From Thermaerobacter marianensis (GTDB lineage: Bacteria; Bacillota; Sulfobacillia; DYIH01): 29,271 nt of DNA. This document shows, piece after piece, positions 1,527 to 25,395 of this stretch (the stretch's first letter is position 1; every line of letters starts with the position of its first letter). The notes under the pieces are model-generated. The model had not been told where the DNA came from and ran no database searches. It saw only the letters and a list, made by a program, of their open reading frames with translations. The position numbers and the translations under genes are program-made. The stretch is from the NCBI GenBank assembly GCA_020723785.1, contig DYIH01000001.1, positions 1-29,271 on the forward strand, given 5' to 3'.

Positions 1527-3095
1527 TCAATGACGGAAGTGGCGGCGGCCGGTGAAGAGCATGATCAGGCCCCGCTCGTCCGCCACACGGATCGACTCCT
1601 CGTCGCGCACCGACCCGCCGGGTTGGACGACGGCCCGGATGCCGGCCTCGGCGGCCGCCTCCACCGTGTCGGCGAAGGGGAAGAAGGCGTCCGACGCCAG
1701 GTACGCGCCCCGCGCCCTCTCCCCCGCCTGGCGCAGGGCGATGCGGGCGGCGTCCACCCGGTTGGTCTGCCCCGCCCCGATGCCCAGGGTCTGCCTCCCT
1801 GCCGCCACCACGATGGCGTTGGACTTGACGTGCTTGACGACCTTCCAAGCAAAGAGCAGTTCGAGGAGGTCATCCTCGGTCGGCCGTGCTCTCGTCGCGC
1901 AGTGCCACTCGGCCGGCGACGCCCCCGGCGCATCGGACTCCTGCAGAAGGAGGCCGCCGTCGACGCGGCGCAATTCGAAGGGCCGCGGCGGGCACTCGTT
2001 CGGCACCCCGCCGGCGCCGCCCGGCAGCGGCACTCGCAGGAGCCGCAGGTTCTTCCTGGCCACCAGCATCTCCCGGGCCTCCGGGGTGAACTCCGGAGCG
2101 ATGATCACTTCCAGGAAGACGTCCGCCAGCGCGTGGGCCGTCTGGCCGTCAAGGGGCCGGTTGAAGGCCAGGATGCCGCCGAAGATGGACACCGGGTCGG
2201 CCGCGTAAGCCTTGCCGTAGGCCTTCACCAGTGTCTCGTCGAGACCGACGCCGCAGGGGTTGGCGTGCTTGACGGCGACGCAGGCCGGCTCGGCGAACTC
2301 CCGCACCAGCGCCCAGGCCGCCTGGGCGTCGTTTAGGTTGTTGTACGACAGCTCCTTGCCCTGCAGCTGCTCGGCCGACGCCAGGGTCGATCCCGCCGGC
2401 AAAGGGTCGCGGTAAAAGGCCGCCCGCTGGTGGGGGTTCTCCCCGTAGCGCAGCGGGGCCACCTTCTCGAAGGCCAGGGTCAGCTCTCGGGGGAAATCCA
2501 GCAGGCCGGCGCCGGCGCGGGCGCCCAGGTATTCGCCGATCAGGGCGTCGTAGAACGCGGTGTGCTGGAACGCCTCCACCGCCAGAGCCAGGCGCACCGC
2601 CTCGTCCAGGTCGCCGCCGGCCCGCAGGGCGCTGAGGACGAACGCGTACCGCTCCGGGTTGACGACGACGATCACGTCCCGGTGGTTCTTGGCCGCCGAA
2701 CGGATCATCGCCGGACCGCCGATGTCGATGTTTTCGATGGCCTCCTCCAGCCTCACGCCGGGCTTGCTCACGGTGGCACGGAAGGGATAGAGGTTGACGG
2801 CCACCAGGTCGATGGGCATGATGCCGTGTTCGGCCATCTGGCGCCGGTGCCGGGGCAGGTCCCGGCGGGCCAGGATGCCGCCGTGGACGAGCGGGTGCAG
2901 GGTCTTGACGCGCCCGTCCAGGATCTCCGGGAACCCGGTCACCTGGTCCACGGGCGTCACTACGACCCCCGCCTCCTGCAGGACGGCAGCCGTCCCCCCG
3001 GTGGAGACGATCTCCACACCCAGTTCCGCCAGGCCGCGGGCGAACTCGACGATGCCTTGCTTATCGGAAACGCTGAGGAGTGCCCGTTTGATCAT
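1527..3095 (-). CDS. purH: Bifunctional AICAR transformylase/IMP cyclohydrolase
   Basis: [46 protein letters not shown] and SDAFFPF motifs. Confidence 0.98.
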
Positions 3096-3110: not shown

Positions 3111-3779
3111 TCACTTGATGTAAACGCGCCGCCCCTGCACCTCGACCCGCCCCTCGGCTATGAGTCGGATGGCCTCCGGGTAGAGGCGGTGCTCCTGCTC
3201 CAGGATGCGCGCCGCCAGGCTGTCCTCGTCGTCGTCCTCCAGCACCGGCACCGCCGCCTGCAGGATGATCGGGCCGCTGTCCAGCCCCTCGTCCACGAAG
3301 TGGACGGTGCAGCCGGCCACCTTGACACCGTATTCCAGGGCCTGGCGCTGGGCGTGCAGCCCGGGGAAGGCGGGCAGCAGGGACGGGTGGATGTGGACGA
3401 TCCGGCCGGGGAAGGCGTCGAGGAAGGCCGGGCCGAGGATGCGCATGTACCCGGCCAGCACGACCAGTTGGACGGCATGGGCGTTGAGGCGCTCGGCCAG
3501 GGCGCGGTCGAAGGCCTCCCGGCCGGCGTGGGCCTGCGGGTCGACGAATTCCGCCGCGACCCCCGCCTGCCGCGCCCGCTCCAGGGCCTTGGCGTCCGCC
3601 TTGTCGCTGAGGACAGCGGCCACCTCGGCCGGCAGCCGGCCCGCGGCGATGGCCTCCAGGATGGCCTGCAGGTTGCTACCCCGGCCCGAGGCCAGGACGC
3701 CCAGGCGGAGTCGCCCGCCGCCGCCCGCCGCGGCCGCCGCGCGGGCGGTGGCGGCCGCGCCTTCAGTCCGAGTAGACAA
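3111..3779 (-). CDS. purN: Phosphoribosylglycinamide formyltransferase
   Basis: [50 protein letters not shown] start overlaps the purM 3' end. Ala/Gly-rich N-terminal extension; exact start uncertain. Confidence 0.95.
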
Positions 3780-4830
3780 CCTTGCGCTCGCCCCCCAGGA
3801 CCTCGCCGACGATCCAGGCCTCCTGCTCCATCTCCCGCAGGCGCCGGACGGCCCGGTCGGCGGCGTCGCCGGGCACGATCAACACCAGGCCCAGCCCCAT
3901 GTTGAAGGTCCGGCGCATCTCCGCCTCGTCGATCCCGCCCCCCAGGCGCCGCGCCGTATCGCGGATAAAGCCGAAAACGGGCGGCTCGCGCCAGGCGCCG
4001 GGCCGCAGAAGGGCGGCGGTCCCCTCCGGAAGCACGCGGGGGATGTTCCCCGTCAGCCCGCCGCCGGTGATGTGGGCCATGCCCCTGACGGGCAGTCCCT
4101 CCTCCAGCAGGGCGAGGACCGGTTTGACGTAGATCCGCGTCGGCTCCAGCAGTTCCTCGCCCAACACGCGGCCGAACTCCGGCACATGCTGGTCCAGGGG
4201 CAGCCGGGCCTCCTCCAGAAGCAGTCGGCGCACCAGGGAATAGCCGTTGGAGTGCAGCCCCGACGAGGCCAGGCCGACGATGGCGTCGCCCGGAACGATA
4301 TTCCTGCCGTCGATGACCCGCTCCCGGTCGACGGCGCCGACGGCGAAGCCCGCCAAGTCGTATTCGCCGGCCGGGTAGAATCCGGGCATCTCCGCCGTCT
4401 CGCCCCCCAGCAGGGCGCAACCGGCCCGGGCGCAGCCCTCGGCCACGCCCTTGACGATGTCGGCCACTTGGTAGGGCTCCAGCTTGCCGGCGGCCAGGTA
4501 GTCGAGGAAAAAGAGGGGCTCGGCCCCCTGGACGAGGACGTCGTTGACGCTCATCGCCACGCAGTCGATACCGACCGTGTCGTGGAGGTCCAGGGCGAAG
4601 GCGACCTTCAGCTTGGTCCCCACACCGTCGGCACCGGCCACCAGCACGGGCTGCCGGTACCTGTCGACCCGCAGGGCGAAGAGCCCCCCGAACCCGCCCA
4701 GGTCGGTCAGCACCTCGGGACGGAAGGTGCGGCGCACGTGCTGCTTCATCAGTTCCACGGCCTGCTCACCGGCGGCCACGTCCACTCCGGCGCCCCGGTA
4801 CGTCCACCGGGGCTCGTCTCCCCGTTCCAA
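3763..4830 (-). CDS. purM: Phosphoribosylformylglycinamidine cyclo-ligase (AIR synthetase)
   Basis: [55 protein letters not shown]. Start set at TTG 4830 with GGGGTGA 7 nt upstream. Confidence 0.97.
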
Positions 4831-4866
4831 GCCGTAATCACCCCGCAGGGAAGGTCCACAAGGGCT

Positions 4867-4872
4867 ATTGTA
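4867..4872 (-). promoter_or_regulatory. Candidate -10 element (TACAAT) upstream of purM
   Basis: TACAAT lies in the 67-nt nosY-purM gap; no recognisable -35 at 17 nt. Confidence 0.3.
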
Positions 4873-4897
4873 CAAGAAACGGGGGCGGGGGTGTAGG

Positions 4898-5710
4898 CTA
4901 TTCAGGCCGCCGCCAGAGCCGGAGGGCCGCGGCGTAAAACACCGCGCCCCACCCGGCCAGGGCGGGCAGAAGCGCGGCCCAGACCGGGGAGGAGCGTTCC
5001 AGGGCGGCGCCGGCGAAAGGGTTCGGGTCCACGGCTGCCAGGGCTCCTGTGGCCACGAGGGCCACGGCCCGTCCCGCCTCGACGGGGTTGGCGGCCAGCA
5101 GCACCAGCACCGCCCCCGAAGCCGCCCGCGGCGGCAGGGCCAGCCCCAGCCCGACGGCCATCAGGTCGTAGATCAGGGAGGCGAAGACCCAGACGGCCAG
5201 GCCGGCCAGCAACGCCGCCGGCCGCCGGCGCAACCACGCCGCGCACAGGGCGCCGAGCGCCGCGGCGTCGGCGCCGACGATCGTTCCGACGGCCCATAGG
5301 GCCGGAAGCGCCCGCCACGCCTCCTGGAAGGACAACAGTAAACCGGCGCCCGCCAGCCCCAGAGCGAGGCCGCCGGAGACGACGAGCCCTGCCGCGGTTA
5401 CCTTGGCACACAGGACGGCCCCGTGCCGGAAGGCAGGGGCCATCAGGTACCAGCCTGCACCCTCCGCGGTCAGCGACGAGACGCCCTGGACCACGCCCGT
5501 GAGCGCCGCCAGGTACACGACGGCGAGGCTGAGGCCAAGCAGCACCCTGGCCCCGCCGGCGGGGGTGGGGCCGGCCACCCCGTTCTCCAGGAAGGCCAGC
5601 CCGGCGGCGCAGAGGAAAAGCGTCGACGCCAGCGCCGGCAGGGCCGGCGACCTGCGGAGCTGGAGCAATTCGAGTGTGAGTGCGGAACGGAAGGCCGCCG
5701 CGAAAAACAT
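4898..5710 (-). CDS. nosY: ABC-2 type permease of the N2O reductase maturation system
   Basis: Multi-TM hydrophobic protein, strong RBS (GGAGGAGG), directly after the nosF-like ATPase in the nos cluster. Confidence 0.8.
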
Positions 5711-5725
5711 GGCCTCCTCCCCCTT

Positions 5726-6382
5726 TCATTGCGCTATGACGCCATCACGCAGCGACAACAGGCGGTCGGCCACGTCCCTGAACATGCCCGGCTGGTGGGT
5801 GGCCACCAGCACCACCTTCCCTCGGGCCCTCCATTCACGGATGAGCCCCACCGCCCCCCGGAGCGCCCCCGCGTCGAGGCTGTCCAGCGGTTCGTCCAAG
5901 AGGAGCACGTCCGGATCGGCGAGGTGGAGCAGGGCCAGGCCCAGCCGGCGGACCATGCCCCCCGACCACCCCCCTACCGGAAACGGGAGGTGTTCCTCCA
6001 GCCCCAGCAGGCCGGCCGCCGCCCTGACGCGCTCCGGGCCGTCTCCTGTCAGGCGGGACGAGGCGGTGGGGGATGAGGCGACCGCCACCGCGGCGAGCAA
6101 TTCCCCGCCCCGCAGGGCCGGCGGAAAGGCAGGCTGCTGGCTGAGATAACCGACCGCCCCGGGGATCGACACCTCCCCCGCGTGGGGGCGCAACCGGCCG
6201 GCGATCAGACGCAGGAGGGTGGTTTTCCCCGCTCCGTTCGGCCCGCAGACCAGGACGACCTCCCCCGGCGCCACGTCGAGGGAGATGTCCCGCAGCACGC
6301 TCCTCCCGTCGAAACCGCGGCGGACGCCACGCAAACGGACGGCGCCCGCCGGCGGATCAAACGGATCAACGAGGGTGGACAT
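5726..6382 (-). CDS. nosF: ABC ATP-binding protein
   Basis: Walker A GPNGAGKTT, signature WSGGMVRR, Walker B LLLDEP, H-loop VATH; located between nosD and the permease. Confidence 0.85.
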   Translation of the reverse strand: MSTLVDPFDPPAGAVRLRGVRRGFDGRSVLRDISLDVAPGEVVLVCGPNGAGKTTLLRLIAGRLRPHAGEVSIPGAVGYLSQQPAFPPALRGGELLAAVAVASSPTASSRLTGDGPERVRAAAGLLGLEEHLPFPVGGWSGGMVRRLGLALLHLADPDVLLLDEPLDSLDAGALRGAVGLIREWRARGKVVLVATHQPGMFRDVADRLLSLRDGVIAQ

Positions 6383-7769
6383 GGCCGAGCCCCCCTCCCA
6401 CGCCGCCCTTGGACCAGCCGGGATCGGCCCCGCAGCGGCCGGCCTGGGCCGCTTCCGCGCGCTCCAGGACCAGGGCGCGCCCGAGCCAATCGGGCGGGCC
6501 GGCTGCGGGAGCCGGGTCCACCGCCGCCGGGAGCCGGAGCACGCGCTCCAGCCGCTCGAGGAGCCACACGGCCGGGCTCACGGCCAGGAGCGCCCCGGCG
6601 GGGTACGATCCCGCGATGTAGGCCGTCACGCTGAGGGCGCGATGCGGCGGCGCCCCGCCCTGCCCCCACCGCGGACCGCGAGCGGCGGCCCGGTCCCAGT
6701 AGTTGCCGGGCATTACCACGTCGGGGCCGCCCCGTTCCAGCCAGACGTCCTGCGTGTTCCCCACGAAGGCGTTGCCGGCGATGCGGCTGTCGCCGGAGTT
6801 GCCCGCCAGGTAGAGCCCCACCCTGTTCCGGGTGAGGAGGTTGCCCGTGATCCCGGAGCGGTTGGCCCCGTCCAGGCCGAAACCGCGCTGCCACCCGGCC
6901 AGGATATTGTCCCGGACGGTGGAGTCGTCGGCGTCCTTGAGCAGCAGCCCGTAACCGCGCGGGTCCCCGTCGCCCACGAACACGTTGTCCCGCACCGCAA
7001 TGCCGTGGGAGAGCATCACGCCCGCACCCACGAGGCCCGGCCCGGCGCGGTTGCCGGCGATGGTATTGGCGCCGGAATTCATGACGTGCAGGGCGATGCG
7101 GTGCTCGCGGATAACGTTGCCGCGCACCACGTTCCCCGTCGCGTAGTCGAGGTATATCCCGTCGCGCGCCCGCCGGACGGCGTTGCCCTCGACGATCCCC
7201 CGGTGGGCGTCGAAGATGTGGATGCCGTCCCCCCTGTCCTCCATCCCGGCGGCTGCCAGGCCGGTGATGGAATTGCCTCGGATGACGAAGTACCGTGCCT
7301 GCTCCACATAGATGCCGTGGAGATTTTCCCTCAGGACGTTGGCTTCCACCCTCACCCCGTCGGCCCTGACCCGGATGCCGGCGGCGTCGGTCTCCAGGCG
7401 CCTCCCGCTCCCCTCCACCGTCAGCCCTTCTACGGACGCTCCGGCGGCGGTGACGACGATGACGTCGCCCTTGCCGTCGCCGCGGATGACGGCGCCGGGC
7501 TCGCCGACCAGCCGCACGCGGCGGACCAGGACCAGCGGCCCGTGGTACACGCCGCGACCCAACCGCACCACGTCGCCGGGCGCGGCCTCGCGCAGCGCCC
7601 GCTCCAGCAGGCGCCCACCGCCCCCGTCCGGCCGCACCTCCAGCACCCTCGCCGCCGCCGGGGTCACCGGCCCAAGCAACAGGGGAAACGCGCATAGAGC
7701 AGCCGCGAAGAAAACCGCGGCGCGGCCCCCGCCGGTCAGCCGCGGCACGACCAGCACCGCACGAATCAT
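6366..7769 (-). CDS. nosD: NosD-type periplasmic beta-helix (CASH repeat) maturation protein
   Basis: N-terminal signal, GVYHGPLVL, IRGDGKGDVI, NLHGIY, DRGDGIHI, RDGIY, GNYWD. The ATG at 7769 overlaps the nosB stop (ATGA). Confidence 0.88.
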   Translation of the reverse strand: MIRAVLVVPRLTGGGRAAVFFAAALCAFPLLLGPVTPAAARVLEVRPDGGGGRLLERALREAAPGDVVRLGRGVYHGPLVLVRRVRLVGEPGAVIRGDGKGDVIVVTAAGASVEGLTVEGSGRRLETDAAGIRVRADGVRVEANVLRENLHGIYVEQARYFVIRGNSITGLAAAGMEDRGDGIHIFDAHRGIVEGNAVRRARDGIYLDYATGNVVRGNVIREHRIALHVMNSGANTIAGNRAGPGLVGAGVMLSHGIAVRDNVFVGDGDPRGYGLLLKDADDSTVRDNILAGWQRGFGLDGANRSGITGNLLTRNRVGLYLAGNSGDSRIAGNAFVGNTQDVWLERGGPDVVMPGNYWDRAAARGPRWGQGGAPPHRALSVTAYIAGSYPAGALLAVSPAVWLLERLERVLRLPAAVDPAPAAGPPDWLGRALVLERAEAAQAGRCGADPGWSKGGVGGGLGHVHPR

Positions 7770-8353
7770 TCGTACCGCGGCCATCGCCACACCACCCATG
7801 CCATCGCCGCCAGGGCGAGCAGCGCCAGCCAGCCCCCCGGTTCCAGAACGGAGGTGGTGACGAAGTTGTAGAGCCGGTTCGATCCCAGGAGGGGCGGCGT
7901 GAAGGGCTTCACCCGGAGCGGCGCCTGCGGATCCAGGTCATGCCCGTAAACATAGAGCCAGCGGTAGAGGTCGACGGCGCCGGCCGCCAGGGCCAGACCC
8001 GTGACACCGGCCGCCAGCGCCCCCAGCCGGCGCCGGCCGGCCAGCCCCGCCGCCAGGGCCAGGGCGGCCAGGGCGACGAAGGCGGGGCGCAGCCACCGGA
8101 ACTCCGGCACCTCCGCGGTTTCCAACGGTAACGGCTTCATCCCGATGTAGTGGTTCAGCGTGTTTATGATCGGGATATCGCCCGAAAGGCCCCCGGCCGA
8201 CACCGTCACCCGCAGCCCCTCCGGGTATTGGGGCGCCACGATCCGCATGCTCCACAGCGGCAGGTGGCCGGCCGCCAACAGCGCCGCCGCGGCCAGGAAG
8301 AAGGCGGCGCGGCGGCCGGCGCCCTTCCGGACCTGCTGCGCCACCGAACTCAT
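7766..8353 (-). CDS. nosB: NosB-type membrane protein of clade II nos clusters
   Basis: PLWSMRIVAPQYPEGL, INTLNHYIGMK, WLYVYGHDLDPQAP and PPLLGSNRLYNF motifs with about four hydrophobic segments. ATG overlaps the cytochrome c stop. Confidence 0.85.
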   Translation of the reverse strand: MSSVAQQVRKGAGRRAAFFLAAAALLAAGHLPLWSMRIVAPQYPEGLRVTVSAGGLSGDIPIINTLNHYIGMKPLPLETAEVPEFRWLRPAFVALAALALAAGLAGRRRLGALAAGVTGLALAAGAVDLYRWLYVYGHDLDPQAPLRVKPFTPPLLGSNRLYNFVTTSVLEPGGWLALLALAAMAWVVWRWPRYE

Positions 8354-8745
8354 TTCAGCGTCTTCAGGTAGGCCACCAGGTCGGCCAGATCGCGGTCCGT
8401 CAGACCGGGGTTAGAAGGCATGGTCCCCCCCGTGCGTCCCACGCCGCCGGAGCGGATCCACGCCTTGACGTTGTCGTCCGTGCGCGGTTTGCCGTTGGGC
8501 AGGGTGGTATCCCAGGCCATCACGCCCTTAAGCCCCGGGCAGACCAGCGTGTCGGAGCCGGTGCTGTGACAGCTCGAACACCCCGCCCGTTGAAAGACGT
8601 TGCTGCCCCGGGCGATATCGCCCGCAGCCTTGACGCCCGGCGGCCTGGCGGCCGGAGCCTTGCCCACCTTGGCGCAACCGGCCACCAGCAAGGCGGCCAG
8701 TGAGAGGCCCGCGAGCAACGTGCCCCACCTCGATGCCGACCTCAC
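8350..8745 (-). CDS. Lipoprotein monoheme cytochrome c (NosC-like)
   Basis: Lipobox LVAGC, heme motif CSSCH, distal Met in GTMP. GTG start overlaps the nosZ stop (GTGA). Confidence 0.88.
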   Translation of the reverse strand: MRSASRWGTLLAGLSLAALLVAGCAKVGKAPAARPPGVKAAGDIARGSNVFQRAGCSSCHSTGSDTLVCPGLKGVMAWDTTLPNGKPRTDDNVKAWIRSGGVGRTGGTMPSNPGLTDRDLADLVAYLKTLK

Positions 8746-10787
8746 CGGCCCTCACCCTCCGATCCCGGCATGCCGCCAGCCGGCCCCGGCGTGCCGCCAC
8801 CGGGCTGCGTACCGCCACCCGGCCCCGGCGTGCCGCCGCCGGGCAGCCCGCTCGAGCCGCCCCCGGGCGCGGCGCTTGAGCCAGCGCCGGCCGCCGCGCT
8901 TGAGCCGCCCGCTGTTCCCTTGGGCCGCACGAGCAGCCAGCCCTGCATCTCCTGGTGCAACGCGGAGCAGAAGTTCGTGCAATAGAAGGGGTAGACGCCC
9001 GGTTTGTCGGCCGTGAACTCCATGGTCTTCGTCTCGCCCGGCTGGATCTCCATGTTCAGGTCGTAGTTCAGGATGCCGAAGCCGTGGGTGATGTCCTGGT
9101 CGCGGTCGATGTTCGTCAGGTGGACGAAGACGCGGTCCCCCTGGTTGACCTCGATGCGATCGGGCACGAAGCGGGAGCGCACGGCGACACCGTAGACGTG
9201 CACCTCGTCGCCCCGCCGTTCCACACGGGCGTCGGCGGGCCGCCACACGGAGTTCTGGCGCTTCTCGTCCTTGTCGAAGACCACCGTGGTCTTGATCCTG
9301 TCCGCCCGGATGATCTGGCCGTAGTGGGGTTCGGGGTCGACCGGCGCGTCGTAGAGCAGGCGCATCCGCTGCCCGGAGATGTCGACGAGTTGCAGGCTCT
9401 CCGGATGGGAGGGTCCCACGGATAGGTACCTGTCCTTGGCCATCTTGTTCAGCGAGACGAGGTAGCGGCCCACCGGCGCGGCGGTGTCGCCCTCAGCCAC
9501 GGCGATGTGGCCCACGTTGTACTGCACGGGAATGCGGTCCACCACCTCCCAGGTTCCCAGCCGCCACTTGGCCACGGCGCTGTCCAGGAAGAGGGAGGTG
9601 TAGGCGAAACCCTTCCCGTCGAACTGGGTGTGCAGCGGCCCCAGCCCAACCGGCACCTCGGCGGCGCGGACGGCCTCGTACCGCACCACCGGCATACCCC
9701 TGGCCTCGCCGGTAAAGTCCTTTTTGGCGATCGCGCCGCGCAGCTTCTCGAAGTCGAATACGGTCACATGCGGGGCGAGCTTGCCGCTGGCCACGATGTA
9801 GCGGCCGTCCGGGGAAACGTCCACCCCGTGAGGGCTCTTGGCCACCGGTAACAGGTAGGCGATGCCCGGCACCTTCGACGGGTCGATGACTTTCGCCCCG
9901 TCGATGACCGTGTACCGGCCCTCGCGCGCCGCGCGTTCCGCGGCCCTCCAGTCGACGGCCACGATGTAGTCGCGGTCGCGCTTGGAGGCGTTGGCCTCCA
10001 GGTTGGAGGTGGCCTCCTCGGTGTTGTAGGTGGTCAGGAACAGCCAGCCGTCGCTCGGTCCCTTGCCGGCGTCCGACAGGTCATAGGACCACGGCGGGAG
10101 GAGGAGTTCCCAGGCCAGGCTCATCTCGCCCCGATCCTTGTCCACCTTGAGGGCCGCCATCACCCCGTAATAGCGCGAACCGAACTCCTCCAGCGGGGCA
10201 TAGGTGCCGCGCGGGATGGGCATGGCCAGGCGGGAGGGCGCGAAGACGTATTCCGTGTTGGGCGTGACGAAGACGGAACAGTGGGCCCCGGCGATGTTCG
10301 GCAGCGGGCCGACCATCTGGTGCACCCGGAAGGTGTGCAGGTCGATGGAGGCCAGCCGGCCGTTGGCCATGTCGCTCACGAACAGCCAGCGCCCGTCGTA
10401 CTTGCCGCCGGTCTCGCTCAGCGCCACGTGGTGCAGGTCGCCCCAGTGGAAGCCTCCGAGCATCTCGCGGCTCTCCTTCTCGAACCCCCATCCCGTGGCC
10501 GACTCCGGCGTGAAGACGGGGATGGTGCGGATGCGGCGCATGGAGGGGAGGCCGTAGACGAAGACGTTCCCGGAGTGGCCGCCGGAGGCGAACAGGTAGA
10601 ACTCGTCCAGCTTGCCCGAGGGGACGTAGGTCTGCAGCGCCGCCGCGCGCGTATCCGCCGGCCCCTGCGGCGGCAGGTCCGGCCTGGCCCGCGGCAGCCT
10701 GCCCCCCCTGATCACGAAGGCCACCAGCCCTATGAGCGCGACGGCGGCCACCGCCGCCAACAGGCGCGTCCTGCTGTCCCTGATCAA
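8742..10787 (-). CDS. nosZ: Sec-dependent (clade II) nitrous-oxide reductase
   Basis: Seven CuZ histidines (DLHH, GAH, PHG, GPLH, GHI, EPH), CuA ligands THGF and CTNFCSALHQEM, SGGHSG motif. No twin-arginine motif; hydrophobic N-terminal signal/anchor. TTG start with GAGAGG upstream. Confidence 0.96.
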   Translation of the reverse strand: MIRDSRTRLLAAVAAVALIGLVAFVIRGGRLPRARPDLPPQGPADTRAAALQTYVPSGKLDEFYLFASGGHSGNVFVYGLPSMRRIRTIPVFTPESATGWGFEKESREMLGGFHWGDLHHVALSETGGKYDGRWLFVSDMANGRLASIDLHTFRVHQMVGPLPNIAGAHCSVFVTPNTEYVFAPSRLAMPIPRGTYAPLEEFGSRYYGVMAALKVDKDRGEMSLAWELLLPPWSYDLSDAGKGPSDGWLFLTTYNTEEATSNLEANASKRDRDYIVAVDWRAAERAAREGRYTVIDGAKVIDPSKVPGIAYLLPVAKSPHGVDVSPDGRYIVASGKLAPHVTVFDFEKLRGAIAKKDFTGEARGMPVVRYEAVRAAEVPVGLGPLHTQFDGKGFAYTSLFLDSAVAKWRLGTWEVVDRIPVQYNVGHIAVAEGDTAAPVGRYLVSLNKMAKDRYLSVGPSHPESLQLVDISGQRMRLLYDAPVDPEPHYGQIIRADRIKTTVVFDKDEKRQNSVWRPADARVERRGDEVHVYGVAVRSRFVPDRIEVNQGDRVFVHLTNIDRDQDITHGFGILNYDLNMEIQPGETKTMEFTADKPGVYPFYCTNFCSALHQEMQGWLLVRPKGTAGGSSAAAGAGSSAAPGGGSSGLPGGGTPGPGGGTQPGGGTPGPAGGMPGSEGEGR
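8770..8910 (-). repeat. Imperfect tandem repeats encoding the Gly/Pro/Ser/Ala tail of NosZ
   Basis: ccggccccggcgtgccgcc at 8780 and 8819 (39-nt period); gcgcttgagcc at 8872 and 8896 (24-nt period). Confidence 0.8.
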
Positions 10788-11146
10788 GCTCTTTCATCCT
10801 CTCGCGTTGTTCTGACAACCGATAGCATTCCCCTCCCTTCGACCAACCTTGCGCCTGCCGCCGCTTCTCCGCGGGCCGTATGGCACCCGTGGTGCCGGGA
10901 ATCAATGGAATAAACAGCGCGGTGAGGGCCGGGGAGAAGACCGCCAGGACGGCCGCCCGGCAGTGGGGCGTCCGGGCAAGAAAGGCCCGCAGGTCGGAAA
11001 GCTTCCGCTCGCGGCCACCTGGAATAGCGTGTAGGATAGGACGGTGGAATCGGGCCAACTTTATATGATATAGGGGATTATTCTTCATGCTGATCGGTTT
11101 TCGTGGCATGCAATGAAAGCCGTTACTGCAGGAGGAAAAGGACGGC

Positions 11147-12400
11147 ATGAGTCGAATAGACCAACCGGATGCCACCGATGGCTCGAAACAGGTGAGGGCC
11201 ATTTCGACCGAGCGCAAAGGCAGGAGTCCCTTCTATCCAGGACAACCGGTGCCGGTTGAACTGTTCGTGGGACGGCAGGAGCAGGTCGACCGGATCATGA
11301 CCCGCGGCGTTGCCCAGGTCGCCGCCGGTAAGCCGGTGGCCGTCTTCGTCCAGGGCGAGTACGGTATCGGAAAAAGCTCGCTGGCTGGGTTCGTGCAATT
11401 CCTGGCGGAAAAAAAGTATAACCTTCATCCTCTCTACGTTCCACTGGGTACGGCGGAAAACCCGGACGACCTGGGGAAAGAGGTCCTCGAAACCACCCTC
11501 AAATCGGGTGCCTTCAACCCGACCAGGGCCGACAGGATTCGCACCTGGCTGAACAAGTATATCGAGAACGTGACCTTTTTCGGCGTCAGCATTCGCCTGG
11601 ACGCCATCAAACGGGACGCACCCCATATCGCCTCGGGCATGTTGCCCTTTCTCGCGGAGGTGTTCAACCGTCTCAACGATACCGGCGTAAAGGGGCTGTT
11701 CCTCGTCTTAGACGAAATCAACGGCATCGCCGCCGATCGTCGTTTCGCCTACCTGCTCAAATCCATCGTCGACGGCAACGCCATGTCCCCCAAGCCCATA
11801 CCGCTGCTCCTGATGCTCTGCGGCGTGGAGGAACGACGCCGCCAGATGATCCAACATCATCCCCCCCTGGACCGGATCTTCGACGTCATTGAGATCAGCG
11901 CCCTGTCCGCGGAGGAAATGAAAACGTTTTTCGAAAACGCTTTTCGGAGCGTGGACATCGAGGTCGAATCGGAGGCGATAGAGCTTTTAATAGAATGGTC
12001 AGCGGGATTGCCCAAGATCATGCACCTGGTGGGGGATGCCGCCTTCTGGCTGGATCGTGACGGCGTCATCTCCAAAGGGGACGCGCTCGCAGCCGTCATG
12101 GTGGCTGCCGAAGAGGTCGGCACCAAGTTCGTCGACCAACAGGTCTACAGGGCGTTGAAGAGTCGGGACTACCATGCCATCCTGCGGAAGCTGGGCAAGA
12201 TCAGCTTGAAGAGCAACTCATTCATGAAGTCCGAATTGGAAAAGGATCTCACGGATTCAGAGCGCAAAAAGCTCAACAACTTCCTCCAGCGAATGAAAAA
12301 GCTCAACGTGCTACGGTCCGGAGACAGCATGGGGGAGTATGAGTTCAACCTGCCGATGGTCCGGGCCTACATCTGGCTGCAGAGCCGGCGGGACGGGTAG
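11147..12400 (+). CDS. Stand-alone P-loop NTPase, STAND/AAA_16-like, with probable C-terminal winged helix
   Basis: SPFYPGQPV...FVGRQEQ N-terminal motif, Walker A GEYGIGKSS, Walker B LFLVLDE, GxP motif SAGLP, and a helical/basic C-terminus ending in a GEYEF hairpin. Confidence 0.8.
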   Translation: MSRIDQPDATDGSKQVRAISTERKGRSPFYPGQPVPVELFVGRQEQVDRIMTRGVAQVAAGKPVAVFVQGEYGIGKSSLAGFVQFLAEKKYNLHPLYVPLGTAENPDDLGKEVLETTLKSGAFNPTRADRIRTWLNKYIENVTFFGVSIRLDAIKRDAPHIASGMLPFLAEVFNRLNDTGVKGLFLVLDEINGIAADRRFAYLLKSIVDGNAMSPKPIPLLLMLCGVEERRRQMIQHHPPLDRIFDVIEISALSAEEMKTFFENAFRSVDIEVESEAIELLIEWSAGLPKIMHLVGDAAFWLDRDGVISKGDALAAVMVAAEEVGTKFVDQQVYRALKSRDYHAILRKLGKISLKSNSFMKSELEKDLTDSERKKLNNFLQRMKKLNVLRSGDSMGEYEFNLPMVRAYIWLQSRRDG

Positions 12401-12489
12401 GAAAACCCCGACGCCTGCGCCTTGGAGACTCAAGCGGTTGCGACATTGGGAAAGAGATCCTCGAAGCCACCCGCAAATCGGGATATGGG

Positions 12490-13101
12490 TTACGGCGCTA
12501 CCCCGACGAGAATCAGGGGCACGGCAGGGACGCCGCGCCCTTCGCGGATGAGGTTGTAAAGCTCGGCCTCGTAATAGCCTACTCCGGACGACATCTCCTG
12601 TTGAAGTTCCTTCATTGGTAGTATCTCCACGCCGACGTCGATCACGTCGCCCACGTAAAACGCCATGTGCTTCACAAAAAGATCATAGGCAACAAAGGGA
12701 TATTTCCCGAATTGGACCTCGACCGCCACACGTTCCTTTACGAAATCCGTCTGATTATAGGAGTATATGGGTGTCATCCCCGCGTTCTCTATTTCGGCTT
12801 TCTGCTGTGCGGCAGGTAGATGCATGGTCTTACGAATCAGCTGGACATCGGATGTTACCCAATAAGAGGTTCGCCGCTCCCCCCAACCGCGAGCAGCAAA
12901 CGCCTGTCGCAGTGCCCGATTCATTGCCACAGGAGAAAAGAAAACGCTGCCCTCGGTCCGTTTCTCCTTGGATACTTTCGTCTTGCAGGCGCTGGCATCA
13001 ACCGACGCTATACACGCTTCGATCTCGGTCCACAGATGTTTCTTGTGTACCAAAAGGAACTCAACACCGTTGAGGTGCGAATAGCATTCCACGATCTCCA
13101 T
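12490..13101 (-). CDS. Type II restriction endonuclease, BglII/BstYI family (BstYI-like; predicted RGATCY)
   Basis: 203 aa. YSHLNG, TKVSKEK, SYNQTDFVKERVAVEVQFGKY, DLFVKHMAFY and GRGVPAVPL match BstYI as I recall it, with D119/E128/Q130 at the BstYI catalytic positions. Specificity is inferred. Confidence 0.9.
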   Translation of the reverse strand: MEIVECYSHLNGVEFLLVHKKHLWTEIEACIASVDASACKTKVSKEKRTEGSVFFSPVAMNRALRQAFAARGWGERRTSYWVTSDVQLIRKTMHLPAAQQKAEIENAGMTPIYSYNQTDFVKERVAVEVQFGKYPFVAYDLFVKHMAFYVGDVIDVGVEILPMKELQQEMSSGVGYYEAELYNLIREGRGVPAVPLILVGVAP

Positions 13102-13144
13102 GATAAGCCCTCCCCGGCAGCAAAAAACAGCAATCGGGGCAACG

Positions 13145-14104
13145 TCACGGAATCATCTCCAACGATGGCCGGGAGATGGCGCGCCCGGCCGGTGGTTCAT
13201 AGATGGGTCGATCCATGGGGCGGGTCCGCAGGAGACCTGCGGCAGCCAGCCGCACCCGCTCCCCCGCAATTCTCACGTACTCCTCAACGATATCCGCCCC
13301 TGCCGCCTGGCGGCCGTGTTTCACCGCCGCCACCAACGTCGACCCCACACCCATGTAGGGATCCACCACCAGCTGGCCCCTCTCGGTCATGGAGAGCACC
13401 AACCGCTCCACCAGTTCAACGGGAAACTGACAGGGGTGAATGGTCTTCTCCACATGGTTATGCTTAACGTTTGGGATCATCCAGACGTCGCCCGGGTTCT
13501 TCCCCAGGGGGTTGCAGGAGAATTGCCCGGCCTTAGGCCCCTTGAAATACTTCTTGCCCGGATACTTCTGAGGTACTCTGACAGGGTCGAGGTCAAAAAC
13601 ATAATCATCGGACTTGGTGAACCACAGGATCGTTTCATAGCGTCCCGAAAAACGCTTGGAACAATGCAGACCGTGTTCGAAATGCCAGACGATGCGATTA
13701 CGCAGTTTCAAGCCGTGTTCCTTAAAAACAGGGTATAGAACCACGTCAAGAGGGACGATCTCGCCATCGGGAGCGACGTAGTTCCCCACCTGCCAGCAGA
13801 GACTCCCCCGCCGGTGCAGGATGCGTACACATTCGACAATGACAGAGGCCTGTTCCTCGACATAAATTTCGAGGGCCTTCCTTTTCTCATACTTCTTCCC
13901 AATGTTGTAAGGGGGTGAGGTCACGATGAGATGGGCAGCCTCGTCCGGAATCGTTTTCAACAGACCCTTGCAATCGCCATGAAACAAGGTCACGTCGTCC
14001 CGAAGTTCCCGCGCGACGGCCAAGTCATCGAGTTTCCCCTGATGCAACCGCCGACCCTCCCAAGGTTCCATCGAAGTCGGTTTGATCAGTTCGCCATCGC
14101 ACAC
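13145..14104 (-). CDS. DNA methyltransferase, beta class, N4-cytosine type (cognate of the endonuclease)
   Basis: Catalytic motif IV TSPPY precedes HPCQFP and motif I VVDPYMGVGST (beta order). GTG start with AGGAG 5 nt upstream; alternative ATG at 14071. Confidence 0.92.
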   Translation of the reverse strand: MCDGELIKPTSMEPWEGRRLHQGKLDDLAVARELRDDVTLFHGDCKGLLKTIPDEAAHLIVTSPPYNIGKKYEKRKALEIYVEEQASVIVECVRILHRRGSLCWQVGNYVAPDGEIVPLDVVLYPVFKEHGLKLRNRIVWHFEHGLHCSKRFSGRYETILWFTKSDDYVFDLDPVRVPQKYPGKKYFKGPKAGQFSCNPLGKNPGDVWMIPNVKHNHVEKTIHPCQFPVELVERLVLSMTERGQLVVDPYMGVGSTLVAAVKHGRQAAGADIVEEYVRIAGERVRLAAAGLLRTRPMDRPIYEPPAGRAISRPSLEMIP

Positions 14105-14115
14105 GTGTTCTCCTG

Positions 14116-15687
14116 CTACTCGCCCACATTTTTCCTCCCAGGCGCCGCCCCCTCCAGGGCGAACTTGCCCGCCCCCTCCTCCGGCGGCACCGCGTAGCGG
14201 CCGGTGAAGCAGGCGGCGCAGAAGTCGTCCACCCGGCAGCCGATGGCCTGGGCCAGGGCGTCCAAGGATAGGTAGGCGAGGCTGTCGGCGCCGATATGCT
14301 CCCGGACCTGTTCCACGTCGCGGGTGGCGGCCACCAGTTCGCCCTTCGAGGAGGTGTCGATGCCGTAGTAGCAGGGGTTCCTGTAGGGCGGGGAACTGAT
14401 CCGCACGTGCACCTCCCTGGCGCCCGCGTCGCGCAGCAGTTGGACCAGGTAGCGCAGGGTGGTGCCGCGGACGATGGAGTCGTCGACAAGGACGACGCGC
14501 TTGCCCGCGACGACGCGCTTGACCGGGTTGTACTTCAGGCGCACCCCGGCGGCGCGGCTCTGCTGGGTGGGCTGGATGAAGGTGCGGCCGACGTAGCGGT
14601 TCTTGATCAGGCCCATCTCGTAGGGGATGCCCGTCTCCTCGGCAAAGCCGGATGCCGCCGAGATGCTGGAGTCCGGCACGCCGATGACCACGTCGCCCGG
14701 CGCCCGGTGTTCGCGGGCCAGGAGGCGGCCCAGTTCTTTGCGCACCAGGTGGACGTTGGCACCCATCAGGTCGCTGTCGGGGCGGGCCAGGTAGATGAAC
14801 TCGAAGACACAGAGGGCCGTCCGCTCCTCCGAGGCGAAACGCAGGCTGCGCAGCCCCTTCTCGTCGATGAGGACGATCTCCCCCGGCGCCACGTCGCGGA
14901 CGTATTCGGCACCCACCGCGTCCAGGGCGCATGTCTCCGAGGCCGTCACCCAGGCGTCGCCCAGGCGGCCCAGGGAGAGGGGACGGATGCCGAGAGGATC
15001 GCGGGCGGCGGCCAGCGTCTCCGGGGTCAGGAAAACCAGGGCATAGGCACCCTTGATCGTCTGGAGCGCCGCCACCAGCGAGGATTCCAGGTCGCGGAAC
15101 CCGGAGCGGGCCATCAGGTGGGGGATGACCTCGGTATCCGTGGTGGTCTGGAAGATGGAGCCCTCCTCCTCGAAGTCCTCCCGCAGGCTGGCGGCATTGG
15201 TCAGGTTGCCGTTGTGGACCAGGGCCAGTTCACCCTGGCGGAAGGCGACGACCAGGGGCTGGGCGTTGGTGACCGAACTCGATCCGGTGGTGGAGTAGCG
15301 CACGTGGCCGACGGCCCGGTCGCCGGGCAGGTCCTTCGCGGCGCGGCCGTTGAAGACCTCCGACACCAGGCCCATGCCCTTGTGCACGTAAATCCTCCCC
15401 TTGTTGGCCGTCGCGATGCCGGCGCTCTCCTGGCCGCGGTGCTGCAGGGCGTAGAGGCCGTAGTAGGTCAGGGCCGCCGCGTCGGGGTGGCCGAAGATGC
15501 CGAAGACGCCGCACTGCTCCCGCGCCTCCGGGCCGCCCACGTCGGTCGGCGCCGGCTGGCCGCCGGCGGCGCCGACCGACCACTGCACAGCAGACATCGC
15601 CCGCGCGTCCGTCCCGCCGCTCCCCTGCAGCGGTGCGGCGCCGGCGGCAGCCGCCGGACGATTCACGGGCGCGCTCCCATCAGACAC
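14116..15687 (-). CDS. purF: Amidophosphoribosyltransferase (Fe-S type, with propeptide)
   Basis: EQ|CGVFG nucleophile site, [34 protein letters not shown], and four Fe-S cysteines (CVFE, CYYG, CAAC). GTG at 15687 has GGAGG 7 nt upstream; a later ATG is possible. Confidence 0.97.
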
Positions 15688-18092
15688 GGCAGGGCCTCCC
15701 TCCAAACGCTTTCCAAGTCGGCGGTGGACTCGTCCACCAAAGCGCGGCCGTTGACAGTGACGACCAGGCGATCGCCGCCCACCCGGCCCACACGTTCAAT
15801 GGGAACACCGTGTCCCCTGGCCAGATCGGCCAGGGCCGGCAGCTTTTCCTCGGGTAGGGAGACGACGACCCGCGACGGCGCCTCGCCGAAGAGCAGGGCG
15901 TCACACCGCCAGTCGGAGCCGCCACCGGCGGCCCCGAAGCCGCCGGAGCCGCCCGCGCCCGGCGGTCCCGCCGGGGCCGGCAGGTCGAGGACCGCACCCC
16001 GCGCCCCGTCCGCGGCGGCAAAGCAGCATTCGGCCAGGGTCACGGCCAGGCCGCCCTCGCTGCAGTCGTGGGCGGAGGCCAGCAGGCCCGCCTCGATGGC
16101 CGCCAGGAGCACCCGCTGCAGCCGCGCCTCCAGCTCCAGGTCGATGGCCGGCCGCCCGGCCACATGCCCGTGAACGACCCTGAGATATTCGGAGCCGGCC
16201 AGGGTCGCCGGGTCGGCGGTGAGGGGCCCGAGCACCGCCACCGCGTCGCCGGCGCGCTTGAACCCCGGTGTCATGCGCTTCTCCAGGTCCTCCAGCAGCC
16301 CGACCATGCCGATCACCGGCGTCGGATAAACGCCGCGCCCCATGGTTTCGTTGTAGAAGCTGACGTTGCCGCCGGTGACCGGGATGTCCAGGGCCAGGCA
16401 GGCCGCCCGCATCCCCTCGATGACCTGGCGGAACTGCCACATCACCTCGGGCCGTTCGGGGCTGGCGAAGTTGAGGCAGTTGGTCAGGCCGATGGGCCGG
16501 GCGCCGGCGCAGGCCACGTTGCGGGCCGCCTCGGCCACGGCCATGGCCGCCCCCGCGAACGGGTCCAGCCGGCAGAAGCGTCCGTTGCCGTCGGTGGCGA
16601 GGGCCACGCCCTTTCGCGTGCCCCGCACCCGCAGCACGGACGCGTCGCCCGCGCCGGGCACCAGAACCGTCGAGGTGCGCACCATGTGGTCGTACTGGCG
16701 GTAGGCCCAGGCCCTGCTGGCCACGTTGGGCGAGGCCAGGACGCGCCGGAGCGCCGCGCCGCAGTCCACGGCCGCCCCCGGCGCGACGCAGTCCATCATC
16801 GCCCCCGCCGCGCCGACGTCCGGCACCGTCGCGAAGTCGAAGGCCCACAGCTCGTCCAGGTCGGCGGGCCGGCGCTGGGGCCGGTCGTAGGCCGGCGCCG
16901 CATCGGCCAGCGTGCGGGCCGGCACGTCGGCCACCACGCGGTCGTTCTCCAGGACGCGCAGGCGGCCGTCGCCGGTGACGCGCCCGATGCGGGCCGCCTC
17001 CAGGCCCCACTTCTCGAAGACGGCCTCCACCTCGGCCTCCCGGCCCTGCCTGGCGATGACCAGCATCCGCTCCTGGGACTCGGAGAGCATGACCTCGTAC
17101 GGGGTCATCCCCTCCTCCCGGCGCGGCACCAGGGCCACGTCGATCTCGATGCCGTTCCCCGCCCGGCTGGCCGTCTCCGAACAGGACGAGGTCAGCCCGG
17201 CGGCACCCAGGTCGTTGACCCCCGCCACCGCGTCGCCCTGCATGAGCTCCAGGCAGGCCTCGATGAGCAGCTTCTCCATGAACGGATCGCCCACCTGGAC
17301 CGCGGGGCGCATCTCCTCGGCCGCCGCGGTGAACTCCTGGGAGGCCAGCAGGCTGGCCCCGTGGATGCCGTCCCGCCCCGTCTTGGCGCCGACCAGGAAC
17401 ACCGGGTTGCCCACCCCCTCGGCCCGTCCCCGCACGATCTTGTCCTTCGGGATCAGGCCGACGCACATCACGTTCACGAGGGGGTTCTCATTGTAACATT
17501 CCTCGAAATAGATCTCGCCGCCGACGGTGGGGACGCCGACGCAGTTACCATAATCGGAGATCCCCTTGACGACGCCGCCCACCAGGTAACGGTTGCGCGC
17601 CGCCCTGGCCTCGTCGGTGCCGGGGCTGTCGAGGCCGTCGGCCGCCACGGGGCTGAGGGTCCCCCGAGGGGCCGGCCCCGGCTCCAGCGGACCGAAGCGC
17701 AGCGAATCGAGCAGGGCAATGGGCCGGGCGCCCATGGTGAAGATGTCGCGCAGGATGCCGCCCACCCCGGTGGCCGCGCCCTGGTAGGGCTCGATGGCGC
17801 TGGGGTGGTTGTGGCTCTCCTCCCGCACCGCGATGGCCAGGCCGTCGCCGATGTCCAGGACGCCCGCGTTCTCCCCCGGCCCCACCAGCACCCGCGCCCC
17901 CTCGGTCGGCAGGCGCTTGAGGTGAACGCGGGAGCTCTTATAGCTGCAATGCTCCGACCACATCACGCCGTACAGGCCCAACTCCAGGTCGTTGGGCTCC
18001 CGGCCCAGGAGTTCGACGATGCGGCGGTATTCGTCCTCCGTGAGGCCCACCTGCTCCCAGCGGGGGGCGGTGGCGATTTGCGCCGTGCTCAC
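15663..18092 (-). CDS. purL: FGAM synthase subunit PurL (small type)
   Basis: [63 protein letters not shown]. Start uncertain (GTG 18092 chosen; ATG 18140 possible). Confidence 0.96.
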
Positions 18093-23926: not shown

Positions 23927-23934
23927 AGCCCCAG

Positions 23935-24037
23935 TTCAAAGGGGAGTAGCTACCCGGCAGCCTCCGCCGGGGGACGGTTCCGTCAATACGGATTTTCCCG
24001 GACCGTCCGCTCTATCGAGAGTCAGCGAGACCTTTGC
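23935..24037 (+). ncRNA. yybP-ykoY (Mn2+-sensing) riboswitch aptamer
   Basis: CAAAGGGGAGTAGC ... CGTCAATAC ... GCGAGACCTTTG consensus blocks; P1 is CAAAGG/CCTTTG; lies upstream of a TerC gene. Confidence 0.92.
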
Positions 24038-24073
24038 GCCTACCAAGCAAATCATGGGGCGTAAAGGTTTTTT
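24030..24073 (+). terminator. Intrinsic terminator of the riboswitch expression platform
   Basis: ACCTTTGCGCC ... GGCGTAAAGGT stem followed by a T-run. The left arm includes the 3' strand of P1, giving an ON-switch arrangement. Confidence 0.85.
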
Positions 24074-24112: not shown

Positions 24113-24421
24113 ATGAAGTGTCCGATGTGCGACGCGGTGATGCGAGAGATCAACCGGCGTGGGGTCCACATCGACGTGTGCCCCGAATGCAAGGGGGTCT
24201 GGTTGGACCGGGGCGAGCTGGAAAAGATCATCGCGGCTTCCCGGGAGGACTTCGACGACTACGCGCCCCGGCAGCGTGACTATCCTTCTCCCGCCAGGGG
24301 CGGCGACCACCCGCAGCGCGAACCGTCCCACGACCACCATAAATACGACCACCATAAATACGGATATCACAAGCCCAAGAAAAAGCGCTTTTTTGAAGAG
24401 ATCTTCGAAATTTTCGATTAG
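24113..24421 (+). CDS. Small zinc-ribbon (zf-TFIIB-like) protein with His-rich tail
   Basis: MKCPMC ... IDVCPECKGVWLDRGELEKI; tail HDHHKYDHHKYGYHKPKKK includes a 15-bp duplication (24330-24359); purine-rich RBS. Confidence 0.88.
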   Translation: MKCPMCDAVMREINRRGVHIDVCPECKGVWLDRGELEKIIAASREDFDDYAPRQRDYPSPARGGDHPQREPSHDHHKYDHHKYGYHKPKKKRFFEEIFEIFD

Positions 24422-24444: not shown

Positions 24445-25395
24445 TTGGAAACCGTGGGTTCCCCCTTTCTGTGGGTGGGGTTTACGCTTCTCGTACTCGT
24501 TCTTCTCGCCCTGGACCTGGGCGTGCTCAACCGCCAGAACGACATGGGACCCCGCCAGGCGTTACGGATGACCCTGTTTTGGATCAGCCTGGCGGTTCTA
24601 TTCAATGTCGTGATCTACTTCCTGTTCGGCACGGAAAAGGCTTTGGAATTCACCGCCGGCTACCTGGTCGAATACTCCCTCAGCGTCGACAACATCTTCG
24701 TCTTCCTGGTGGTCTTCTCTTACTTTGCCGTGCCCCATGCCCACCGGCGCCGCGTCCTCTTCTGGGGGATACTGGGCGCCATCACCATGCGCGCCGCCTT
24801 CATCCTGGCCGGCGCCACGCTGCTGAAGCAATTCCACTGGATGATCTTCGTCTTCGGCGGCTTCCTCATCCTGACCGGGGTCAAGTTGTTCCTCCAACGG
24901 GACGAGGAACCACATCCGGAACGCAACATCCTCTTCCGCCTCTTCCAGCGGTTCGTCCCGTCCGTTTCCGAGTATCACGGCGGCCATTTCCTCGTCCGAA
25001 TCGACGGCCGACGCTTCGCGACGCCGCTGCTGCTGGTCCTGGTGTGCATCGAGGCGACGGACGTCGTCTTCGCCATCGATTCCGTCCCGGCGATCTTTGC
25101 CATCACCAGGGATCCGTTCATCGTCTATACGTCCAACATCTTCGCCATCCTGGGCTTGCGGGCCCTCTACTTCCTCCTGGCCGACCTCATGGAACGGCTC
25201 CATTATCTGAAGGTCGGACTTAGCGCGGTGCTGGTCTTCGTCGGCGTCAAAATGGTTCTCGCCGACTGGTACAAGGTGCCCGTGGGGGCATCCCTGGCCA
25301 TAATCGCCGGCATCCTGGCGGTCACCGTCATCGCCTCGCTTCGGTGCTCGCCCGGAACGACCATGACCAAGCGTAGCAACAGGCCGCCCACGTAA
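24445..25395 (+). CDS. TerC/Alx family membrane protein (putative Mn2+ exporter)
   Basis: AGYLVEYSLSVDNIFVF, RVLFWGILGA, TDVVFAIDSVPAIFAIT, SNIFAILGLRALYF; downstream of the yybP-ykoY riboswitch. Confidence 0.95.
   Translation: METVGSPFLWVGFTLLVLVLLALDLGVLNRQNDMGPRQALRMTLFWISLAVLFNVVIYFLFGTEKALEFTAGYLVEYSLSVDNIFVFLVVFSYFAVPHAHRRRVLFWGILGAITMRAAFILAGATLLKQFHWMIFVFGGFLILTGVKLFLQRDEEPHPERNILFRLFQRFVPSVSEYHGGHFLVRIDGRRFATPLLLVLVCIEATDVVFAIDSVPAIFAITRDPFIVYTSNIFAILGLRALYFLLADLMERLHYLKVGLSAVLVFVGVKMVLADWYKVPVGASLAIIAGILAVTVIASLRCSPGTTMTKRSNRPPT

Follow-up and report, generated by a model that had tools for sequence, protein, structure and literature searches.

In purine operons of the Bacillus subtilis type (purEKBCSQLFMNHD), purF and purM are direct neighbours within a single biosynthetic unit. 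Chromosomal hotspots of horizontal gene transfer that are free of mobile elements, with recombination in the flanking core genes, have been described by Oliveira, Touchon, Cury and Rocha (2017, PMC5635113). Clade II nos clusters for the reduction of nitrous oxide (N2O), of which nosB is a marker (PMC11409646), are found in Acidobacteriota (Vicinamibacterales), Gemmatimonadota and Ignavibacteriota. BstYI (PDB 1SDO) is a restriction endonuclease that recognises RGATCY and has an adjacent methylase gene. The window analysed here, which comprises the initial 29,271 nt of contig DYIH01000001.1 (32.7 kb), carries a purine cluster in which nine genes, spanning 9.3 kb, separate purF from purM: a six-gene clade II nos cluster, a BstYI-type restriction-modification (R-M) pair and a lone ATPase gene. 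We read this interval, with a probability of about 0.7, as a lineage-specific spacer between the transcription units purE...purF and purMNH that acquired two or more modules independently. The contig belongs to a metagenome-assembled genome (MAG) of 1.93 Mb and 68% guanine plus cytosine (GC) in 348 contigs, with 85% completeness and 3.6% contamination. The uncultured, high-GC bacterium comes from the subsurface, and its PurM is ~63-65% identical to that of Bacillota such as Desulfofundulus and Moorella. The stretch was found in two independent public subsurface metagenomes from different studies.

The minus-strand cluster reads purE, purB, purC/S, purQ, purL, purF, the nine other genes, purM, purN and purH. 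It shares with the B. subtilis-type operon the order purE-B-C-S-Q-L-F followed by M-N-H, but a break follows purF, a -10-like box of its own precedes purMNH, and no purK was seen in the window. As in the hotspots of Oliveira and co-workers, the same two core genes bound unrelated accessory genes, for defence or niche metabolism, in different genomes, and no integrase, tRNA or repeats accompany them. Those hotspots were defined from many genomes of one species together with recombination in the flanks, whereas the present comparison runs across genera and includes two conspecific populations; moreover, the purF-purM site lies within what is elsewhere a single operon. The nos genes agree with clade II clusters in their order (nosZ-nosB-nosD-nosF-nosY), in the TIGR04246 match and in the CuA motif. 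They differ by the lack of nosL, nosG/H and nosC1/C2, by their place between purine genes and by a cytochrome c gene between nosZ and nosB; in more than 30 other nos loci, NosB homologues (31-50% identical) are encoded directly downstream of nosZ. The endonuclease resembles BstYI in its 203 residues, its full-length alignment, its conserved D119/E128/Q130 and its adjacent methylase gene; unlike in the BstYI system, the methylase start abuts the 3' end of a housekeeping gene so closely that no promoter of its own would fit between them, and the endonuclease has been lost in one population. The locus is a plain, if rather ordinary, example of foreign genes gathering at one permissive spot between conserved genes, and its cargo, a clade II nos cluster without nosL and a BstYI-type R-M system, is of well-known kinds. 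New are the lineage-wide opening of a conserved operon junction that carries a conserved internal promoter-like box, and the direct view of R-M decay.

The purF-purM junction is tight in most of the class. Outside the order, the two genes are collinear, with aligned ends at most 251 nt apart, in 32 of 36 class-level genomes, and in a metagenomic relative with a 68% identical PurM (L193) they overlap. Nearer relatives were compared at 65-81% PurM identity to the window. Within this order-level group, seven different contents lie between or beside purF and purM: an open reading frame (ORF) for an 80-residue two-helix protein (G001 and GCA_964517935), a LysM protein gene (L188), azlC and azlD spanning a contig break (G004), two Fic-domain genes ahead of purM (L191), a divergent opp-like ABC transporter ahead of purM (L189/L190), unrelated genes around purF and purM on separate contigs (G002), and the nos, R-M and ATPase genes of the window genome (G000). 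The junction is disturbed in all same-order genomes that can be examined there; a fourth, G003, has purF at a contig end. As an internal control, the purQ-L-F and purM-N-H junctions of the same loci are tight, except for the missing purN of G002. Neither nos nor R-M genes occur at the site in any relative searched, and a metagenome scan with PurM for closer relatives gave nothing above 67% identity. At the depth of genera and families, the comparison supports a hotspot at this junction. The initial annotation had taken the two genes as normally adjacent and their junction as a site of variable cargo, and it had proposed aligning the interval across relatives; both points hold, as the interval is empty or nearly empty in some relatives and differently filled in others, across genera rather than strains.

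Three further observations concern the purine genes of the relatives. In G002 (L042, G002:C18), purH directly follows purM, purN being missing between them. In G007 (L047, G007:C25:8000-18000), purM-purN is inverted relative to purF and purH. The purL gene of L188 (L188:1417-5214; PurM 79% identical) encodes 1,265 residues and contains an intein (Intein_splicing, with a faint LAGLIDADG match).

Upstream of purM, an extended -10 promoter-like box of the form TGTA[C/A/G]AAT, present as TGTACAAT, TGTAAAAT or TGTAGAAT, was found in the window genome, G001, GCA_964517935, L188, L189, L191 and G004, and as the variant GGTAGAAT, without TG, in G002. It lies 36-100 nt before the purM start codon regardless of the gene upstream, and it is absent from the tight locus L193. 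Both strands of the 1.93-Mb, 68%-GC genome together contain only 21 copies of the TGTAnAAT motif. A generic promoter scan missed TGTACAAT because the box has no -35 element. These features suggest that purMNH is a separate transcription unit with its own putative promoter, gained in the ancestor of the group, which would make the site a spacer between two operons, purE...purF and purMNH, and not the interior of one. The view that the genes are packaged inside a pur operon is thus not upheld, the box (or its G002 variant) preceding purM in every opened lineage. Scans for promoters and terminators revealed no convincing terminator after purF or after nosY. Nothing supports a riboswitch or leader RNA ahead of purM, whose leader has no Rfam match even at E values up to 1.

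The interval from 4831 to 14115 runs exactly from the purM start to the purF stop, and its only non-coding gaps measure 67, 359, 89 and 43 nt. All coding space is assigned and none of it to an integrase or transposase, for which these gaps leave no room. No tRNA was found in the window, and the repeat search of the window gave no repeats flanking the insert that could be insertion scars; the hallmarks of an integrative island, an integrative and conjugative element or a prophage (integrase or transposase, tRNA target, flanking direct repeats) are missing at purF-purM. The distance from the end of the cargo to the box is 23 nt in the window genome, counted from the nosY stop, and 29 to ~330 nt in the other lineages. 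This lack of a fixed attachment point argues against a site-specific capture mechanism, which we reject. The initial annotation had noted the absence of integrase, transposase, tRNA and direct repeats; this stands for the flanks, but one internal direct repeat of 42 nt (88% identical) is present. The corresponding copies, 12441-12482 and 11467-11508, translate to DIGKEILEATRKSG and DLGKEVLETTLKSG, respectively, and the repeat looks like a remnant of a second ATPase copy or the trace of an old recombination event, internal to the insert and not an insertion scar.

Annotation with Pfam, NCBIfam and PADLOC confirmed the nine genes named initially, of which only the ATPase gene is on the plus strand; they are not unrelated, as had been stated, but form two or three modules. 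The nos segment has a GC fraction of 0.717 and a tetranucleotide distance of 0.177, within the range of random 6-kb pieces of the genome (mean 0.149, standard deviation 0.036). In the R-M/ATPase segment, the GC fraction of 0.568 is below the 1st percentile of the genome (0.618) and the tetranucleotide distance of 0.399 is above the 99th (0.327). The R-M/ATPase segment is compositionally foreign, and the nos composition is host-like. Their boundary probably lies near 11010, in the divergent region between nosZ and the ATPase gene, and at the other end the low-GC DNA may reach ~20 nt into the last ~7 codons of purF, which are AT-rich (14116-14139). Two modules are distinguished because composition differs sharply and the phyletic histories differ as well; composition also suggests that the low-GC module is more recent than nos.

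These observations bear on the proposal, made initially, that the nos, R-M and ATPase genes are one composite island, exchanged whole among related strains through homologous recombination in purF and purM. Such a block would be consistent with the lack of mobility genes, with boundaries flush with the core genes, with the occurrence of both modules in both sampled populations and with the documented mobile-element-free hotspots (PMC5635113). Nevertheless, we consider it unlikely: the composition of the parts differs sharply, their phyletic affinities differ, and only the R-M/ATPase part varies between the populations. The searches gave neither a conspecific genome in which the site is empty or differently filled nor any genome with the same block elsewhere, and there is no functional tie between N2O respiration and restriction, whose proximity looks like a coincidence of place and not a functional package. 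Exchange through the pur genes by homologous recombination would, taken by itself, be compatible with such hotspots.

In the low-GC module, the methyltransferase gene begins with GTG 11 nt past the purF stop, and GGAG precedes this start (read from the sequence). The endonuclease gene follows after 43 nt; its product aligns over residues 1-203 with BstYI at an E value of 3.4e-89. Many phyla, and one Burkholderia phage, have homologues 75-80% identical to the endonuclease. In the source genome, the observed/expected ratios of the RGATCY sites AGATCT and GGATCC are 0.64 and 0.70, against a palindrome median of 0.90. The sites are avoided no more than is usual for palindromes, which fits a short residence of the R-M system; long-term selection by R-M on the sites of the genome is rejected. 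The methyltransferase and endonuclease genes are probably transcribed from the pur transcript, as the GTG is so close to the purF stop and follows GGAG. We regard as doubtful, and quite improbable as a whole, the broader proposal that the birth of the internal purM promoter made an invariant junction a lineage-wide gene-capture site at which captured genes ride on pur transcription, the R-M pair being a 3' extension of purE-purF; if true, R-M levels would be tied to purine demand.

The ATPase is a separate matter. Its homologues (60-67% identical) are scattered over many phyla, and among the four that were examined, in six loci, one lies within a type III R-M system and three stand alone among housekeeping genes. 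The nearest endonuclease homologue examined has no neighbouring ATPase of this kind, and a fixed partnership of this ATPase with the R-M pair is rejected. Membership in BREX or known STAND defence systems was not found either: the BrxD model gives 26.6 bits (cut-off 350), confined to the P-loop, and the homologues are mostly solitary. A role of the ATPase in defence is unproven.

NosZ matches the clade II model TIGR04246 with 893.7 bits (cut-off 625) and the Tat-type model TIGR04244 with 476.4 bits, below its cut-off of 625. Its N-terminus, IRDSRTRLLAAVAAVALIGLVAFV, is hydrophobic and of Sec type, without an RR pair, as read from the translation. The CuA motif C-x3-C-x3-H-x2-M is present as CTNFCSALHQEM, along with Cupredoxin_1 and COX2 matches. 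The small cytochrome c is presumed to be the electron donor. The product assigned to nosY has weak matches (E 4e-6 to 0.5) to proteins encoded directly after nosF in 23 nos loci. A search of the 85%-complete genome found no NosL copper chaperone (PF05573). The nos genes would be read from their own upstream region (10788-10939), which is present in both populations. The location between purine genes is unusual, as none of the 34 other nos loci fetched adjoins pur genes.

Of 210 genomes in the class, nine have nosZ, and all four further genomes of the order lack it. Seven same-class NosZ proteins form a clade with 100/100 support, and the NosZ of the window falls outside it, grouping with that of L052, a distant Bacillota MAG, and with Vicinamibacterales-type Acidobacteriota (support 83/91). 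It is 70% identical to the former and 56-59% to the latter. The PurM of the window is only 51% identical to that of L052, so that NosZ is more similar than a housekeeping protein, as would be expected from lateral transfer, and the tree shows that the nos module came from outside the class. Old vertical inheritance, in which the relatives have lost a nos cluster that an ancestor of the order carried here, would suit the host-like composition of nos and the disturbed junction in all examinable same-order genomes. It is very improbable in view of the tree and of the relatives, which carry unrelated genes and no nos remnants; a full nosZ is absent from the four same-order genomes and from the contigs of the other near relatives.

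The bin holds further genes of nitrogen respiration. A second NosZ-like gene, on the minus strand of contig C104 (L179:1450-3405), is very divergent: it scores 505 bits with TIGR04246, below the cut-off of 625, and its product is 38% identical to the NosZ of the window. It is preceded by a cupredoxin-domain gene and followed by one resembling nosB. Contig C348 (L040) carries a third, fragmentary NosZ-like sequence. The GC fractions of these contigs are lower (0.66 and 0.64), and the two genes may represent contamination or extra paralogues. Contig C180 (33-1061) matches cytochrome cd1 (nirS-like; PF02239, 297 bits), and the match contains one TAA; for nirK, nothing above cut-off was found in the source genome. 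The organism may reduce nitrite besides N2O.

Contigs from the sequencing runs support most of the joints. In sample X1, the likely source of the MAG, they bridge purM/nosY (3747-6544) and nosZ/ATPase (9545-11252). The second sample yielded one contig of 7,828 nt (L196) that extends from purM across all six nos genes and on into the methylase gene, is 98.5-99.3% identical, and has the same purM-nosY joint (98.5% identity). Two of its aligned parts (L196 964-7828 to window 10939-4051, and L196 529-963 to window 12557-12123) are separated and followed by the two deletions listed in Table 1. The second deletion, of 490 nt, is out of frame and has a 4-nt microhomology at its joint. The run depth is near zero over the missing parts (0.7 over 11428-12011). 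The methylase gene is retained, at least to the end of the contig. All six nos ORFs are intact and change in length only in frame: nosD gains 9 nt, and in the repeat that encodes the NosZ tail 5 nt replace 38 nt, a loss of 33 nt. The ratio of nonsynonymous to synonymous substitution rates (dN/dS) between the populations is 0.11 for nosZ, 0.12 for the cytochrome c gene and 0.15 for nosB, which shows that these genes are under purifying selection; for nosY, nosF and nosD, it is 0.43-1.55, from only six to ten changes each. Thus, the nos module is maintained, complete in both populations, while the R-M module varies by gene loss and decays to an orphan methylase. An orphan methylase is the usual fate of decaying R-M systems.

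A chimera of MAG purine genes with foreign nos and R-M DNA, created by assembly or binning, might be suspected from the 348 contigs, the 3.6% contamination, the additional nosZ-like genes on lower-GC contigs and the purF/methylase joint, where one run contig ends at 14110, but it is hardly credible given that purM/nosY is bridged in two independent samples and studies and nosZ/ATPase in X1, that L196 is continuous from purM to the methylase gene, and that the flanking pur genes are 72-81% identical to those of the relatives of the bin.

At the joint with purF, X1 yielded a 968-nt run contig (13143-14110) that covers nearly exactly the methylase gene and ends 6 nt short of the purF stop. This end (depth ~6) may be due to chance or to a branch in the assembly graph from a co-existing variant at the joint.

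The reading of two or more independent acquisitions in a spacer between transcription units can be put as a sequence of events. Once purMNH had gained its own promoter in the order-level ancestor, insertions between purF and purM would no longer have cut its transcription, and the formerly tight junction would have come to tolerate DNA. Separate lineages filled the spacer differently, with the 80-residue ORF, the LysM gene, azlCD, the two Fic genes, the opp-like transporter or the genes of the window. The six-gene nos cluster, which has its own upstream region, came from outside the class, and the low-GC R-M/ATPase module, flush with the purF end, would have come later. This module is already decaying, one population being without most of the endonuclease and ATPase genes and keeping the methylase. 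Insertion probably took place by illegitimate or homology-assisted recombination at the permissive spacer and not through a site-specific element, since there is no mobility gene, tRNA or flanking repeat and the cargo boundaries vary by lineage.

Several points weigh against this reading. The relatives belong to different genera or families (PurM 65-81% identical) and are not strains, so that turnover is seen above the species level. In G002, L189 and L191, purF is off the contig, and cargo is indistinguishable from rearrangement in these three. The promoter proposed for purM is known only as a conserved sequence motif. The host-like composition of nos gives no date because the GC of the nearest relatives is similar (0.65-0.70), and the nos module could be as recent as the R-M module. 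The dN/dS values of 1.55 for nosD and 0.8 for nosF, if real, hint at relaxed constraint on the maturation genes. The purF/methylase joint is supported by the MAG contig alone, none of the run contigs listed bridging it, and the MAG is only 85% complete and is 3.6% contaminated.

The locus illustrates how an operon opens to foreign DNA, as a junction that is tight throughout the class holds seven cargos in one order, with the box in every opened lineage. It indicates that N2O-reduction genes can spread without mobile-element genes, which bears on N2O consumers underground: a subsurface Bacillota-like lineage obtained a clade II nos cluster from beyond its own class, and the cluster is intact in two populations from different studies. 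In addition, a restriction system is caught decaying, its endonuclease lost and its methylase kept in one population. Current views are not overturned, and the value of the case is illustrative rather than fundamental.

Table 1. Features of the purF-purM interval and its flanks (window coordinates).
Feature	Position	Strand	Evidence and remarks
purH	1527-3095	-	Remainder of the purMNH unit
purN	3111-3779	-	Remainder of the purMNH unit
purM, right core flank	3763-4830	-	AIRS and AIRS_C domains
Extended -10 promoter-like box TGTACAAT	4867-4874	-	36 nt before the purM start
nos module, clade II, nosZ-cytochrome c-nosB-nosD-nosF-nosY	4898-10787	-	Six genes
nosY-like polytopic membrane protein	4898-5710	-	No family match; hydrophobic segments throughout
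nosF, ABC ATPase of NosDFY	5726-6382	-	PF00005 (generic ABC ATPase); syntenic after nosD in >30 loci
nosD, periplasmic beta-helix maturation protein	6366-7799	-	TIGR04247 301.1 bits (cut-off 300) and PF05048; syntenic in >30 loci
nosB, membrane protein typical of clade II nos clusters	7766-8353	-	No Pfam match; synteny
Small c-type cytochrome, lipoprotein-like signal	8350-8745	-	PF00034 52.8 bits; one CxxCH
nosZ, clade II (Sec-type) nitrous-oxide reductase	8742-10787	-	TIGR04246; Gly/Pro-rich C-terminal tail
Two tandem 39-nt units encoding the Gly/Pro-rich NosZ tail	8768-8845		Repeat search; length differs between samples
Divergent nosZ-ATPase intergenic region	10788-11146		GC-rich to ~11010 (nos side), AT-rich beyond (ATPase side)
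Deletion 1 in the L196 population	10940-12122		ATPase promoter region and codons 1-325 lost; 10788-10939 kept
Low-GC module: BstYI-type R-M pair and lone STAND-like ATPase	~11010-14139		GC shift
Stand-alone STAND/ORC-like P-loop ATPase, 417 residues	11147-12400	+	AAA_16 35 bits; convergent on the endonuclease gene
42-nt remnant of a second ATPase-like gene	12441-12482	+	Between the ATPase and endonuclease stops; 88% identical to 11467-11508
BstYI-type (BglII/BstYI family) restriction endonuclease, 203 residues	12490-13101	-	PF09195 118 bits; PADLOC REase_II 309.8 bits
Deletion 2 in the L196 population	12558-13047		Endonuclease codons 19-181 lost
Type II DNA methyltransferase	13145-14104	-	PF01555 169.7 bits; PADLOC MTase_II 286.5 bits
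purF, amidophosphoribosyltransferase, left core flank	14116-15705	-	GATase_6/7 and Pribosyltran domains

The ends of the two core genes were also considered. The purM start was moved to the TTG at 4830 after alignment of the N-terminus with G001 and other relatives. Residues ~56-527 of PurF are 72-78% identical to the purF products of same-order genomes, and the true purF start is probably near 15540.

At gathering scores, Rfam gave no match across the window. A local search found a full-length sub-threshold match to the Mn2+ (yybP-ykoY) riboswitch at 23929-24062 on the plus strand (21.1 bits, E 0.0012; the gathering score is 45). It precedes two genes, 24113-24421 and 24445-25395, which encode a zinc-ribbon protein (PF13453) and a TerC protein (PF03741).

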